From the NCBI GenBank assembly GCA_018093385.1, contig GCA_018093385.1_4808.1: a stretch of 64,000 nt of DNA. The stretch is one strand, 5' to 3'. This DNA comes from a phage. Below are positions 4,793-64,000 of this stretch, in pieces. Both the position numbers and the translations under genes were made by a program. Position 1 is the stretch's first letter, and each line of letters starts with the position of its first letter. Below the pieces are notes generated by a model, which saw only the letters and a program-made list of their open reading frames with translations, was not told the DNA's origin and made no database searches.

Positions 4793-6253
4793 ATGAATAA
4801 AATATTAACACATAATTGGAAATTCATGTACCAGTTGAATCCTGCTTTAAAAGAAGTCTGGAAGACAAAAGCGCGATACAAAGTGATATACGGCGGTCGT
4901 GCATCTTCCAAATCGCACGATGCCGCTGGTTTTGCTATTTATTTGGCGGCAAACTTCAAATTAAAATTCCTTTGCGTTCGACAATTCCAGAACAAGATTT
5001 CTGAATCTGTATATACTCTATTAAAAGACAAAATAGAGATTTCTGATTTTAAAGATGAGTTCAATTTATTAAAGAACTCTATCGAACACAAAAGAACTAA
5101 ATCTGAATTTCTATTTTATGGTATCGCACGTAACGTTGATGAAATCAAATCAACAGAAGGCGTTGATGTTCTTTGGCTGGAAGAAGCGCACGCGCTTACT
5201 GAAGAACAGTGGGACATTATTGAGCCGACAATACGTAAAGAAGGGTCCGAAATATGGATCATCTTTAACCCTGATGAAGAGGCCGATTTCGTATATCAAA
5301 ACTTTGTTATGCGACCGCCGAAGAATGCCATTGTTAAAAAGATAAACTGGCAAGACAATCCATTTTTGTCGCAAACGATGCTGGACGTTATTGCAGGCAT
5401 GTACGAGCGTGACCCGAAAAAGGCAGAGCACGTTTATGGCGGCGTGCCGAAGACTGGCGGCGACAAATCTGTAATCAACCGCGCATTCGTTAAGGCCGCG
5501 CTTAATCTACACAAGCACCCCACGCTGGGCTGGAGTTTGTCAGGGTCTAACCGTATAGGCTTTGACGTAGCGGACGATGGCGACGACCTTAACGCCACTG
5601 CATTCGTCACAGGAAACGTATTGCGCGGCATCAAGACGTGGGAAGGCCTGGAAGATGAATTGTTGAAATCGGCAAGCGGAGTTTGGAAAGATGCGCTTAC
5701 ATTCGGCGCTTCCATAACTTATGACGCCATCGGTGTCGGCGCTTTTGCTGGTTCAAAATTTGATGAACTAAACGAGTATGCAATACATGAAAATCCATCA
5801 TTTCCAAGAATCGAATTTAATGCGTTCAACGCGCAAGGGTCTGTTGATGATCCTGATGACGTTTTTCTTGAATTACCACACGTTGAAATACTCAATAAAG
5901 ACCATTTCGCAAACATAAAAGCGCAAAAATGGACTGAAATTGCAGAGAGATTCAGAAAGACATACGAATATGCAACTGGGCAAGCCGTATATCCGACTGA
6001 TGAATTGATTTCAATCGACACCGATGGTATACCGGAACTTGGGATTCCAGCTTGGACTACTGAAGAGATTGAGACGTTTCTTTTTGAGATGTCAGCGCCG
6101 CGCAAGGATACATCTGTTCTTGGTAAGTTCAAAGTTGAATCTAAAAAGGACATGGCAAAGCGCGGAGTCAAATCACCTAACAAAGCGGACGCAGCAATCA
6201 TGGCATTGATGAAACCAATCGTTGCAGCATCCGGCTTCTTCTCTAACCTTTAA
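4793..6253 (+). CDS. terL: terminase large subunit
   Basis: Walker A-like YGGRASSKS, Walker B-like VLWLEEAH, C-terminal nuclease-like region; 486 aa; precedes portal. Confidence 0.85.
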   Translation: MNKILTHNWKFMYQLNPALKEVWKTKARYKVIYGGRASSKSHDAAGFAIYLAANFKLKFLCVRQFQNKISESVYTLLKDKIEISDFKDEFNLLKNSIEHKRTKSEFLFYGIARNVDEIKSTEGVDVLWLEEAHALTEEQWDIIEPTIRKEGSEIWIIFNPDEEADFVYQNFVMRPPKNAIVKKINWQDNPFLSQTMLDVIAGMYERDPKKAEHVYGGVPKTGGDKSVINRAFVKAALNLHKHPTLGWSLSGSNRIGFDVADDGDDLNATAFVTGNVLRGIKTWEGLEDELLKSASGVWKDALTFGASITYDAIGVGAFAGSKFDELNEYAIHENPSFPRIEFNAFNAQGSVDDPDDVFLELPHVEILNKDHFANIKAQKWTEIAERFRKTYEYATGQAVYPTDELISIDTDGIPELGIPAWTTEEIETFLFEMSAPRKDTSVLGKFKVESKKDMAKRGVKSPNKADAAIMALMKPIVAASGFFSNL

Positions 6254-11375: not shown

Positions 11376-11399
11376 ATTCATCGGCAAAGGATTGCCGCG

Positions 11400-11700
11400 A
11401 GTTTTATACGTATAATGACGTATCATCCGTATCAAGTAAGTTGTTGTTTTCAAAAGAATCTTACGGATGATACGGATGATACGCATTGCCGCCGTACTAT
11501 ATAGGAATTCAAATAAATTAATTTAAAATTATATATCTAATTTAATTTTATTTTTTTATAAACTCTTATATATGAAAAGTATCCGTATCATCCGTATCAT
11601 CCGTAGCACACCAGTGATAGCGCGGCTTATACACCGATACGGATAAAAATACGCCTCATTTTATCCGTATCATCCGTATCACACTAATAAAGGCGCGGCT
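11400..11700. repeat. iteron cluster flanking an AT-rich core
   Basis: 9-bp unit TACGGATGA / TCATCCGTA in 2-3 tandem copies at about 11421-11436, 11461-11482, 11581-11608, 11634-11643, 11662-11683 in both orientations around ~75 bp of nearly pure A/T (11500-11576); palindrome TATACGTATA at 11406-11415. Confidence 0.6.
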
Positions 11701-49421: not shown

Positions 49422-50606
49422 TTAACGCGCTTTCAAATCACGGTACACGGTCAGATTCTTCTTAGCACGGGTGATAGCGGTGTACATCATCTTGGAGTAC
49501 GGAACGCCGCGCAAGATTTCTTCCAGCACGCACACATTGTCCCACTCGCTGCCTTGCGATTTGTGCACCGTGATGACATAGCCATAATCCATCCCGCCAA
49601 CAGCGCGTTGGGCCTCTTTGCGCACTTCCTGATCAGTAGAGAAGGAAAGAGGATTAATCTTAACCTTTATATCTTTGCCATCGGTAAGCGAGCGCAAATT
49701 GACATACATGATTTCATTGGACTCGTCTTCGTCCCTTTCAAAGTCCGGCACTGGCTCATAGCTAATAACAATCCCTTGCTCGCCATTACAGAATCCTGGC
49801 CCGTGCTGGTTGAAGGTGCAAATAACTTTCTCGCCGATTCCTGGCATTGGCGTTATACGTCCGCTCACTTGCCGTAATAATGAATTCCATTTATCTTTGG
49901 TGCTATTATAGGAGCAAATAATTTGATCATCTTCGCCCATGAATTTCTTCAATGCAGTAACGCGCGGCGATTCTGCCAATACTTTGACGTCATCGTATTC
50001 ACGCGGAGGAAGGCGGTTGCCTTGGCGCACGAAGAAGGAGGCGCGGATTATATTGGACTCTTTCCCTTGCCGCATGATTTCTGTTAACAGTACGTCAACG
50101 GCTTCTTCGGTAAAGTAGGCGGCGGCTTTTACCGGAGGGACTTGTCCAATGTCGCCTAATGCCAGCACAGGGATGCGGTGATCAAGAAGGCGCTCTGTGT
50201 CCCACTCGCCAACCATCGACGCTTCATCGAGTACAACAAGGTGCGGCCTTTCGTCCAGTTTTGACTTTCTCGAAAAGATTGGCTCATTGTCGTCATTTAC
50301 GCCGCGCACGTTATAGATGAACTGGTGAAGGGTCTTAGCGCCACGACAGCCTTTTTGCTTTAATCGGCTTGCAGCCTTTCCGGTCGGCGCAATATAGATA
50401 GCGCCGTACTCACCGACACAGCGGCGCACAATCTCGCGAGCAATAGAGGTTTTACCAGTCCCTGCATAGCCAGCGATGAAAAACACGCGCTTCGTCGTTT
50501 TACCGTCCTGCAATCGCTTGTACCATGCAACGGCTTTCTCGATGGCGTCGATTTGTTGCGCGTTAAACTGAATCACTGGCTCATCATTAAATTCTGGAAT
50601 GTTCAT
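49422..50606 (-). CDS. Dda/RecD-like SF1 helicase
   Basis: Walker A GYAGTGKT, Walker B VLDEASMV, C-terminal ITVHKSQGSE. Confidence 0.85.
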   Translation of the reverse strand: MNIPEFNDEPVIQFNAQQIDAIEKAVAWYKRLQDGKTTKRVFFIAGYAGTGKTSIAREIVRRCVGEYGAIYIAPTGKAASRLKQKGCRGAKTLHQFIYNVRGVNDDNEPIFSRKSKLDERPHLVVLDEASMVGEWDTERLLDHRIPVLALGDIGQVPPVKAAAYFTEEAVDVLLTEIMRQGKESNIIRASFFVRQGNRLPPREYDDVKVLAESPRVTALKKFMGEDDQIICSYNSTKDKWNSLLRQVSGRITPMPGIGEKVICTFNQHGPGFCNGEQGIVISYEPVPDFERDEDESNEIMYVNLRSLTDGKDIKVKINPLSFSTDQEVRKEAQRAVGGMDYGYVITVHKSQGSEWDNVCVLEEILRGVPYSKMMYTAITRAKKNLTVYRDLKAR

Positions 50607-58912: not shown

Positions 58913-59193
58913 AGATGCAAAGATGTCCCCATTGCTTGTCCACGATGCGGCTTACTGCTGAAGAATATTTACATCACGTTAACGTTTGTGATGCTAATCC
59001 TGAAAACTCGACACGTTACTATTATCATTATCATGCGGAAGCAGAAGACGGCTCAGGCGCAACAGGCATCGTCACTACGAAAGAAATGGTGATCACAAAA
59101 AAGGCGTATGAAAGCCTGCTGGATACAATCAAGGAAGTGTCTGGCAAAGAAATAGTCTGCATTAAATCTTTATCTTTCTTGCACGAGGTGTGA
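58909..59193 (+). CDS. small Cys/His zinc-finger-like protein (paralog A1)
   Basis: MKMQRCPHCLSTMRL...HHVNVCDANPENS. Confidence 0.45.
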   Translation: MKMQRCPHCLSTMRLTAEEYLHHVNVCDANPENSTRYYYHYHAEAEDGSGATGIVTTKEMVITKKAYESLLDTIKEVSGKEIVCIKSLSFLHEV

Positions 59194-62667: not shown

Positions 62668-63089
62668 TACAACGTTACGACCTGACATATGATGTGGTAT
62701 CAGAAGATTGCTCCATCACTCCCGTTCCAGAGAGTCATGAAGGACGTTTTGTTGCATATGAGGACTATGAATCATTGCTCAAACTTAATGAGTCGCTAAC
62801 AAAAGAGATTGAGCAATACTGCGAGCGCATCAAAGCCGCTGAAGATGTTATCAAGCTTTTTAGCGAGGCTGTCGATAAATACAAGGAGTGCAACGTACCG
62901 ATTAAGGAGGAAGCGTGGACCGTGTGGCTTGGCGGCGATAATCCGGTGCCTGGTGAGATTGTTGAATACAAGCTGCGCAATGGAGGTGATAAAGTACTGT
63001 CGAGACTTTCTGACCATCTTCACTGGGGTCATATAGGAGCACTCAAAGGCAGCGACATTATTGCTTATCGGGTTGCTAAGGAGGGGTGA
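62664..63089 (+). CDS. hypothetical protein with C-terminal GGD-NPVPG domain
   Basis: WLGGDNPVPGEIVEYKLRNG. Confidence 0.45.
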   Translation: MIQRYDLTYDVVSEDCSITPVPESHEGRFVAYEDYESLLKLNESLTKEIEQYCERIKAAEDVIKLFSEAVDKYKECNVPIKEEAWTVWLGGDNPVPGEIVEYKLRNGGDKVLSRLSDHLHWGHIGALKGSDIIAYRVAKEG

Positions 63090-63538
63090 TGGGCAAACGG
63101 CTTATCGCCGCTGGTTGGGCCATACCGAAGTGGGGCCATCGTGCGCATTACTTTGACGAAGGAGAAGTGCAAAGCCTTTGCGGTCGCGCAACGTATTTCG
63201 GTGATGAGCGCGTCAGCGGCGATTATATCGACTCGCTTTTAGGCAAAGGTGATTGCAAGAAGTGCCAGAATATATTAAGGGATATTCTCACGCAAAAAGG
63301 ATTGCTTGAGCTTGATGAATCGGAAGAAGTAATTGAGCTTAAGCTGGAAGCCAATCACCTTATTAATATGTTCAAGAACTATTACGCAACTAATATGCGA
63401 TCAAAGATGCGTAAGAAAGTAATAGAAGAGGTACTTACTTACAATCCGTTAAGGATGAATAAAACTAAATTGAAGAAATTTAACATAATGGTAAGGAAAG
63501 AATTTAAAAGGCTAGGAGTGAAGAATTTTATATTTTAA
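63086..63538 (+). CDS. hypothetical protein
   Basis: ORF in track, probable GTG start; last gene before noncoding region. Confidence 0.4.
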   Translation: MMGKRLIAAGWAIPKWGHRAHYFDEGEVQSLCGRATYFGDERVSGDYIDSLLGKGDCKKCQNILRDILTQKGLLELDESEEVIELKLEANHLINMFKNYYATNMRSKMRKKVIEEVLTYNPLRMNKTKLKKFNIMVRKEFKRLGVKNFIF

Positions 63539-63554
63539 TAGTGATTAATGTTAA

Positions 63555-63580
63555 GAGGGCCGAATGGCCCTTTTGTTTGC
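63555..63580 (+). terminator. rho-independent terminator
   Basis: GGGCC-GAAT-GGCCC hairpin followed by TTTTGTTTG. Confidence 0.65.
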
Positions 63581-63599
63581 CTGTTGTTTGTGAGGCTTT

Positions 63600-63830
63600 A
63601 TTATCGGATAAAGCGATTGATTTGTGTAAATCTATTAGAGGGTCGTGGGCAGTGAGTATTGTGACGTGAATTTTGTGTCTTGAATATGTGTGCGAATCTG
63701 GAAGATTATTGTACTGTGGTGCTGTGGGATTGGAGAGGGAATCACTAGGAATTGGAGCGTGTACCGTGGTGTGTGGTCCTGTAGGCTGCGCCGTCTATGG
63801 GATTGCCGCTTGAAATTAAAAAGGAGATAT
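63600..63830. other. noncoding G+T-rich, C-depleted tract
   Basis: Long stretch dominated by GTG/TGT/TGG words with very few C on plus strand; no ORF. Confidence 0.4.
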
Positions 63831-63859
63831 AGTTAGCTGGCTAACCTTACGCATAGAAT

Positions 63860-63975
63860 TTAAGCGTATAATGACGTAAGATTTGGACCTATCCGTAGTT
63901 CACTCCACACACTTCTATGGTGCGCCGCGACTGGTTTCAGTGGTACATCTTACGGATGATACGGATGATACGCGT
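63860..63975. repeat. second copy of iteron/promoter-like module
   Basis: GCGTATAATGACGTA and 27-bp ATCTTACGGATGATACGGATGATACGC identical to 11458-11484; palindrome GTTAGC-TG-GCTAAC at about 63831-63846. Confidence 0.55.
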
Positions 63976-64000
63976 CGCCGCTATACTTTATACAACTTTG

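Follow-up and report, generated by a model that had tools for sequence, protein, structure and literature searches.

A conserved strand-skewed noncoding tract beside the left terminal-repeat boundary of a Wifcevirus genome, possibly an arm of its packaging-initiation region

The 64,000-nucleotide (nt) stretch of phage DNA analyzed here (contig GCA_018093385.1_4808.1; referred to below as the window) belongs to a Wifcevirus, an E. coli myovirus of ~68 kb with a 3.7-kb direct terminal repeat (DTR), and 13 records of E. coli myoviruses resembling FEC19, ECML-117, and WFH match its last 600 nt at 92 to 97% identity. Close to the right end of the window, positions 63600 to 63830 form a noncoding tract that an earlier reading of the letters, made without database searches (the sequence-only reading), had singled out as depleted in C and rich in G and T. 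The composition bears this out: the 231 nt comprise 55 A, 26 C, 76 G, and 74 T (C, 11.3%; G+T, 64.9%; GC skew, +0.49). The true limits of the skewed stretch are the end of a terminator (~63583) and ~63830, and 63583 to 63830 (C, 11%; G, 33%; T, 33%) has the strongest strand skew in the whole 64 kb. The terminator is also carried as an annotation in phage WFH, where the equivalent of the tract region is an unannotated gap of ~650 nt following it. Neither a description of the tract nor a Wifcevirus transcriptome was found in the literature.

The tract lies just outside the DTR. Comparison of the WFH record with itself revealed an exact repeat of 3701 bp, the first base of which is window-equivalent 64019, 19 nt past the window end; a terminal repeat of ~3.7 kb was also reported by Korf et al. 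(PMC6563267). The Mansfield record, for which a PhageTerm-predicted boundary served as the opening point, terminates at the very base given by the WFH DTR (...AATTAACTCC / ATTTTGAA...), so that two independent studies place the left DTR boundary at the same base. The WFC record, as deposited, starts at the same left-boundary motif. The tract is 189 to 419 nt upstream of this physical left end and 549 to 779 nt upstream of the start of terS, the small terminase gene, which begins 361 nt inside the DTR and whose product matches the small terminase PDB 7uxe (E = 7e-34). The first DTR gene is annotated as TerS in Mansfield. The small terminase gene is within the 3.7-kb repeat in Bas101 (L002 4981-5454) and Mansfield (L017 361-834), and each virion DNA therefore carries two copies of it. 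Two tandem sigma-70-like promoters (10 of 12 matches) are located just upstream of terS (DTR 280-326), and in the deposited record terS and the large terminase gene (window 4793-6253) are ~60 kb apart.

The features of the locus are listed below in window coordinates. Nucleotide diversity (π) was determined in an alignment of 11 genomes of clade A, the clade of the window, which was also the basis for the reading-frame and stem tests described below. The near-neutral yardstick was π at third codon positions (0.10).

63086-63538, plus strand: last gene of a small-gene operon, 150 amino acids (aa), matching PHROG 2358 (E = 4e-65); variable columns 15/5/46 by codon position, a coding-like pattern.
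63552-63582, plus strand: intrinsic terminator, a GC-rich hairpin (63552-63575) followed by UUUUGUUUG; -15.2 kcal/mol, z = -4.07.
63577-63604: weak promoter-like match, TTGCCT-16-TATTAT, with 9 of 12 positions, overlapping the start of the tract.
63583-63600: hypervariable, G+T-rich start of the tract; π, 0.18 versus 0.10 at third codon positions.
63601-63640: strongly conserved block with two palindromes; π, 0.017.
63601-63611: palindrome TTATCGGATAA, containing the iteron-like TCGGATAA.
63619-63632: palindrome GATTTGTGTAAATC.
63641-63700: near-neutral spacer, G+T rich and C poor in every aligned genome, with a degenerate 14-nt tandem repeat, TTGTGACGTGAATT, inside it; π, 0.125.
63701-63755: segment with the first heptamer site and short repeats; π, 0.055.
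63710-63728, plus strand: first heptamer site, TGTACTGTGGTGCTGTGGG, a degenerate direct copy, 50 nt upstream, of the site at 63758; nearly invariant in the 11 genomes; repeat families D2 and D3.
63756-63830: segment with the conserved motif, the island, and the A-rich end; π, 0.047.
63758-63778, plus strand: tandem-heptamer site, CGTGTAC-CGTGGTG-TGTGGTC (CGTG-N3-CGTGGT); invariant in clade A.
63784-63809: conserved island, GGCTGCGCCGTCTATGGGATTGCCGC, recovered in the cross-clade alignment as GGC.GCGCCG...TGG(G)ATT.
63813-63830: A-rich end of the tract; invariant in clade A.
63821: Shine-Dalgarno-like AAGGAG within the A-rich end, with no start codon after it.
63832-64000: right-hand neighbor, outside the skewed tract, with the lowest π of the locus (0.0085 for 63831-64019).
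63832-63845: perfect palindrome GTTAGCTGGCTAAC, in the right-hand neighbor.
63867: TATAAT, pointing rightward, with no -35 element.
63950-63972: iterons, TTACGGATGATACGGATGATACG, with inverted copies beyond an AT-rich element.

Both boundaries that the sequence-only reading had drawn are present, the strong terminator hairpin on the left and, on the right, the module of palindrome, TATAAT, and iterons (63832-63972). The right-hand neighbor runs past the window end into the AT-rich element and the DTR boundary. The center of palindrome GTTAGCTGGCTAAC is ~40 nt upstream of the start predicted from the TATAAT, and the arrangement of AAGGAG, palindrome, and TATAAT (63821-63872) is what would be expected of a promoter dependent on a dimeric activator. 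The iteron-like word [AT]CGGAT[GA]A has 15 copies in the window, of which 12 are at the two iteron modules (the second is described below) or in the 63601-63640 block.

The tract is a mosaic in which a few constrained sites stand amid drifting sequence of conserved composition. Substitutions in the 63641-63700 spacer run among G, T, and A, and few introduce C. None of the three short open reading frames (ORFs; 42 to 48 aa) that cross the tract behaves as coding, and the earlier statement that the tract has no ORF holds in this sense only. That the longest of them (63690-63836, 48 aa, annotated in Bas101) encodes a small protein is extremely improbable. It is open in all 11 clade A genomes, and small ORFs have been annotated at the tract in both Bas101 and kaset. 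However, it would start with GTG and has no ribosome-binding site, and its variable columns are distributed 8/5/11 by codon position, which is not codon-like, compared with 15/5/46 in the neighboring gene. The 42-aa ORF is frameshifted in most of the clade A genomes, and the 46-aa ORF is interrupted by stop codons in three. The tract ORFs had no significant PHROG match, the ORFs picked in the Bas101 and kaset annotations are not the same, and the sequence is absent from clades B and C. Coding ORFs were rejected on the grounds of the frameshifts, the stops, the substitution pattern, and the missing ribosome-binding site. The hypothetical ORFs deposited across the tract in Bas101 (L002 4148-4631) and kaset (L010 1473-1956) look like over-calls, as do F8 ORF075 and JG024 gp77 (L024 944-1462 and L025 906-1487), which span the G+T-rich tract and AT-rich element of the Pbunavirus phages considered below.

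The same alignment bears on a structured noncoding RNA, one of the functions proposed in the sequence-only reading. The weak promoter-like site at 63577-63604 could start a discrete small RNA, and the plus strand is able to form G-U-rich stems. However, the predicted folding of the two strands was no better than that of shuffled sequences (z = +0.41 and +0.20), Rfam gave no match in the tract and none anywhere below an E-value of 0.2, and there is no 3' terminator, the palindrome at 63832 having a stability of only -3 kcal/mol. The longest predicted stem depends on G-U pairs and is broken rather than compensated by the substitutions in relatives. With shuffle-level folding, no Rfam family, no covariation, and no promoter-terminator unit, a structured RNA was rejected, and a discrete small RNA from the tract is very improbable.

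The skew of the tract is local. Among 63,770 sliding 231-nt windows, only 134 were at least as skewed as 63600-63830, and all of these overlap the tract locus. The peak window starts at 63510 (skew, +0.57), the next independent window reached +0.43, and the remainder did not exceed +0.33. Past 63830 normal composition resumes (C, 23%), and none of the other intergenic gaps in the window had a skew above +0.26. The skew is not a regional mutational equilibrium, because the fourfold-degenerate sites in the flanking plus-strand genes lack the bias; they are C rich rather than C poor (C, 26 to 27%; G, 19%; skew, -0.14 to -0.17). Regional mutational bias was thus ruled out, and the skew is as atypical as had been supposed. 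The words YGTGG and TGTG are two to three times more common in the tract than in dinucleotide shuffles (p ~0.01).

The tract was also searched for known elements. GGG runs, as expected in G-quadruplexes or R-loop initiation clusters, occur in pairs at most and never three or four close together. The Chi sequence GCTGGTGG occurs three times in the window (4023, 8207, and 52871) and not inside the tract, which rules out a Chi-type RecBCD attenuator. No full fit to the CRP, DnaA-box, Ter, or IHF consensus was seen when the tract was inspected by eye; the nearest was the IHF-like AATCAATCGCTTT on the minus strand (~63610-63622), with one mismatch. The T7-type primase pentamers GGGTC, GTGTC, and TGGTC all occur in the tract, and GTC is not enriched.

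Read on the minus strand, the same composition might serve transcription termination. In this explanation, the tract is a Rho-loading (rut) insulator, and minus-strand RNA would allow the host Rho factor to stop leftward transcripts from the DTR before they enter the small-gene operon. The minus strand of 63600-63830 is 33% C and 11% G over 231 nt, the highest C-over-G stretch in the window, and its RNA is weakly structured (-27 kcal/mol for 268 nt versus -63.5 kcal/mol for the plus strand), so that it provides the C-rich, G-poor, unstructured RNA of at least 80 nt expected of a rut site. The terminator hairpin has a poor T-run on the minus strand, and C depletion, rather than sequence, is what the clades share. 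However, in a consensus scan of the 1.3 kb to the right, no leftward sigma-70 site scored above 9 of 12, and a bidirectional terminator already stands between terS and the leftward DTR genes. Rho loading would also leave unexplained the enrichment of G to 33%, the conserved oriented motifs, and the pairing of the tract with the terminus rather than with the paralogous module described below. Thus, it seems quite unlikely that the tract is a rut site.

The tract is conserved in composition beyond clade A. The spacers at its position in clade B (Bas98 and Bas99), clade C (the WFC/Ro157lw/CWP003/TH32/F13 group), and RCIP0319 could not be aligned with the window by BLAST. In clades B and C, the lineages that the composition figures cover (RCIP0319 lies outside them), the first 300 nt after the last gene had 9 to 11% C and a skew of +0.31 to +0.50 in every spacer measured, and the last 190 nt before the boundary had normal composition. 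The clade C tracts are 39 to 41% T and 5 to 10% C, and the length of the spacer is kept at 477 to 499 nt in clades A and C. Loss of the skew in relatives was part of what the sequence-only reading had named as refuting it; instead, the skew is kept at the same position in the measured lineages. When IMG/VR was scanned for the boundary sequence, the sole hits were ECML-117 and FEC19 themselves. The record OZ035737.1, although named 'Wifcevirus WFH', has in common with the query only the 46-nt iteron segment, with no match to the clade A tract, and it represents a phage different from MK373776 WFH at this locus.

Islands common to all lineages emerged from the otherwise unalignable spacers in cross-clade alignment, among them CGTG-N3-CGTGGTG (63758-63771) and GGC.GCGCCG...TGG(G)ATT (63784-63809). 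In clades A and C, CGTG-N3-CGTGGT is on the plus strand 253 to 261 nt to the left of the boundary (261 nt in the window), and an inverted, minus-strand copy is ~220 nt inside the DTR, 472 to 480 bp from the plus-strand copy. The facing sites span the iteron/AT-rich core, and the cut falls at most 15 nt from their midpoint. Clade C also duplicates the heptamer site, as the window does at 63710-63728. A helical periodicity of YGTG (~20 nt), present in JG024, F8, and WFC, is absent from the clade of the window, where the spacing is 7 nt instead.

The window contains an internal control for the association of the tract with the terminus. A paralogous module with iterons, AT-rich element, inverted iterons, and a TATAAT-bearing segment is found at 11380-11700, within the head-gene cluster and between the head-morphogenesis genes and the head protease gene. 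The module may be an origin of replication or a promoter region under regulation; no genome end is mapped to it, and it has neither a skewed flank (skew, +0.03) nor a CGTG pair. Thus, the skewed tract follows the terminus/terS context and not the iteron core itself. GGATTGCCGC, a part of the conserved island, recurs just upstream of the aligned core of the module (~11410), and the two copies are out of register in the two-sequence alignment of the modules.

These comparisons are pertinent to a replication-associated site, another function that the sequence-only reading had proposed. The tract might flank an iteron/AT-rich origin, either as a strand-specific zone for helicase or primase loading or as a site of R-loop priming into the DTR. 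Direct and inverted iterons do flank an AT-rich element adjoining the tract, as expected beside an origin. High positive GC skew downstream of plus-strand transcription favors R-loops, and the tract is positively skewed downstream of a plus-strand operon; the weak promoter-like site after the terminator and the rightward TATAAT at 63867 also fit. However, the paralogous core has no skewed tract, an efficient terminator precedes the tract, and it lacks the run of at least three GGG clusters by which R-loop initiation is predicted. In Pbunavirus (see below), the skew goes from plus to minus across the center, opposite to bidirectional origins. A replication role for the tract itself appears unlikely.

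TerS homologues with 41% identity are found in hundreds of Pbunavirus (PB1-like) phages, and in two of these, F8 and JG024, the order is primase gene, terminator, G+T-rich tract, AT-rich ATTAAT element, mirrored A+C-rich tract, and terS. Skew reaches +0.68 in the G+T-rich tract and -0.71 in the mirrored tract. JG024 is circularly permuted, and 59,376 ± 5, a putative pac site, is the starting point of 36 of 161 long reads (Ipoutcha et al., PMC10913387). The most positively and most negatively skewed windows of the JG024 genome start at 59,060 and 59,663 and thus flank the published start. The XbaI pac fragment is ~15 kb (PMC10913387); from 59,376 the next XbaI site is 14,628 bp rightward and 20,953 bp leftward. 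Since the fragment fits the former distance and not the latter, packaging of JG024 evidently proceeds to the right, in the direction of terS, and leaves the G+T-rich tract behind. The published study of JG024 maps only the position of the read starts, and the skewed tracts are undescribed there (PMC10913387).

The JG024 pac site resembles the Wifcevirus locus in that the phages are of the same virus family, with the same gene order and homologous TerS proteins, and in that a G+T-rich tract follows a terminator ~100 to 300 nt upstream of a mapped end. The base composition is the same (window tract versus JG024 tract: A,.24/.24; C,.11/.12; G,.33/.33; T,.32/.31), despite genomic G+C contents of 46% and 56%, and CGTG occurs every 20 to 22 nt in JG024. 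The two also differ. JG024 is headful and circularly permuted, whereas the window phage has fixed ends and a 3.7-kb repeat, and the strong mirrored A+C-rich arm before terS in JG024 is weak in Wifcevirus, where it consists mainly of one inverted motif. In the more distant phages BcepF1 and FoX7, there is a faint pattern of plus then minus skew upstream of terS.

The Pbunavirus tracts also help in judging whether the bias is a mutational footprint with no function of its own. The plus strand to the left of a recurrent cut might often be single stranded and lose C by deamination, which would allow for a few true binding sites embedded in the tract. The left half of the tract does evolve at near the neutral rate (π, 0.125 to 0.18 versus 0.10), the T-rich, C-poor clade C tracts are what C-to-T change would give, and the mirrored Pbunavirus tract is G poor and A rich on the same strand, as symmetry predicts. 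However, G is 33 to 36% in the tracts compared with genome means of 23.5% (window) and 27.8% (JG024), and C is 42% in the mirrored Pbunavirus tract compared with 27.9%. Because such enrichment of G, and of C in the mirrored arm, cannot come from deamination, pure C-to-T deamination was ruled out as the sole cause. Furthermore, the G+C content of the window tract (44 to 45%; genome, 46%) is not lowered, and the window and JG024 tracts are nearly identical in composition in genomes that are not. A mutational footprint is accordingly considered unlikely.

The explanation that is best supported by the position of the tract, its conserved skew, the oriented convergent motifs, the specificity for the terminus, and the JG024 parallel is that it is the upstream, unique-sequence arm of the region in which packaging is initiated and the termini of a DTR phage are formed. 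This explanation is tentative, and we put it at somewhat below an even chance; the mechanism is one that we infer. Of the functions proposed in the sequence-only reading, a packaging recognition region is the one favored by position, kept skew, and the JG024 parallel. As expected of a pac- or cos-like region, the tract adjoins a mapped virion DNA end (189 nt from the left DTR boundary) and is near a small terminase gene (terS is 549 nt beyond it). The patchy diversity along the tract (π, 0.017, 0.125, 0.055, and 0.047 in successive segments versus 0.10) is as expected of binding sites in a compositional matrix.

In the mechanism proposed, a multimeric DNA-binding protein, most likely the ring-shaped decameric small terminase, would engage low-specificity, same-oriented words of the GTG type in the two arms. 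The ~480 bp separating the arms would thereby be bent or looped, so that the boundary would be offered to the large terminase for initial cleavage, and packaging would then proceed rightward, away from the tract. If the tract is such a packaging arm, the strand bias would be the footprint of many degenerate, same-oriented binding words, and this would be why composition is kept where sequence drifts.

Several observations weigh against a packaging arm. The motifs were recognized post hoc, by inspection. Clade B lacks an exact tandem site, and the site in RCIP0319 is 349 nt from the boundary rather than ~255 nt. CGTG-N3-CGTG (CGTGNNNCGTG) is enriched throughout the genome (9 copies versus 1.8 expected; none of 100 shuffles reached 9) and is therefore not unique to the ends. 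The internal repeats of the tract were only marginally in excess of those in shuffles (p = 0.01 to 0.12), the mirrored arm inside the Wifcevirus DTR is weakly skewed (-0.16), and words of 8 and 9 bases common to both DTR boundary regions were at chance level overall. TerS of the related phage E217, a protein of solved structure, had no appreciable DNA binding in vitro (PMC9611059).

The nine copies of CGTGNNNCGTG are at 1117, 3163, 24604, 38744, 49439, 51629, 61949, 62914, and 63758, and the exact 11-mer of the tract, CGTGTACCGTG, recurs on the minus strand at 49439. All six copies of CCGTGGTG (1545, 29236, 30952, 33073, 59648, and 63764) are on the plus strand and none is on the minus strand, which may reflect a polar oligomer or chance (two-sided p ~0.03).

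The proposed layout resembles that of two known systems, without membership of either being claimed. In Bacillus phage SPP1, the order pacL-pacC-pacR likewise comprises an upstream arm, a cut site, a downstream arm, and the small terminase gene, and packaging is toward terS, as inferred for JG024. Contacts in SPP1 are described on both sides of the cut (PMC9611059). SPP1 differs in being headful with no long fixed terminal repeat, in arms that are not described as strand skewed, and in having documented TerS binding, which is putative for Wifcevirus; there is no sequence similarity between the two. In phage lambda, cosQ-cosN-cosB is followed by Nu1, so that recognition elements are on both sides of the cut and the small terminase gene is just downstream, and an arriving motor encounters the upstream element in a single polarity. 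However, lambda has 12-nt cohesive ends, its elements are short, defined sequences in contrast to a skewed tract of 250 nt, and no IHF-type site was established at the Wifcevirus tract.

Phage T7 offers a lead only. At its concatemer junction, short repeat arrays flank the terminal repeat, with an origin-like promoter and an AT-rich element beside them. T7 thus shares with Wifcevirus direct terminal repeats, repeat-bearing noncoding DNA just outside them, and a promoter-like/AT-rich element pointing into the repeat. T7 has a 160-bp repeat and depends on a phage RNA polymerase, whereas the window phage has a 3.7-kb repeat containing terS and no phage-type promoters, and there is no sequence similarity.

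The orientation of the skew suggests a further possibility, that the oppositely skewed tracts are a polar signal for a translocating or end-processing enzyme rather than static binding sites. From such a signal, the terminase motor, or else a nuclease or polymerase engaged in duplicating the repeat, could read its direction of travel and its stopping point. In Pbunavirus, where both flanks are skewed, the 5'-to-3' direction of the G+T-rich strand is toward the cut on either side. The Wifcevirus plus strand is G+T rich at two places, the left flank and the right DTR boundary; the latter is identical in WFH and Mansfield (...GGGTCTTT / TGGTGCGT...) and lies within an 86-nt G+T-rich patch of the plus strand (C, 13%; G, 33%; T, 38%); an inverted CGTGAATCGTGG is ~175 nt beyond it. 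A polar signal is decidedly improbable; if true, it would offer a shared account of the switch within the family between headful packaging and packaging with a fixed 3.7-kb repeat.

Two further observations concern the right end of the repeat. The WFC repeat as deposited is 3784 bp and ends 80 nt beyond the GGGTCTTT/TGGTGCGT boundary of WFH and Mansfield (L018/L019); either the boundary is truly different or the assembly-based estimate is imprecise. To the left of the right boundary, the interior of the WFH DTR (3250-3640 of L003) has ~400 nt of noncoding DNA downstream of a plus-strand terminator that is mostly C rich and G poor on the plus strand, with a skew mostly of -0.2 to -0.35, a composition opposite to that of the tract.

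The tract is a real, unusual, and conserved noncoding feature. Phage end-recognition regions are themselves known, and the finding is best classed as new in the unusually strong, oppositely skewed arms of such a region. At a practical level, several deposited records carry spurious ORFs over the tract that can be corrected in annotation, and knowledge of the locus can guide the choice of a point for opening or engineering these genomes. How ends are chosen and duplicated in phages with long DTRs is poorly understood outside T7. For the DNA recognized by the small terminase of the therapy-relevant PB1-like phages, the results supply a conserved candidate substrate, in which a strongly strand-skewed arm bearing an oriented motif and its mirrored partner lie on opposite sides of the mapped cut. 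Since the arrangement is found in both a genus with a fixed 3.7-kb repeat and a headful genus, terminase recognition in this family becomes directly testable.

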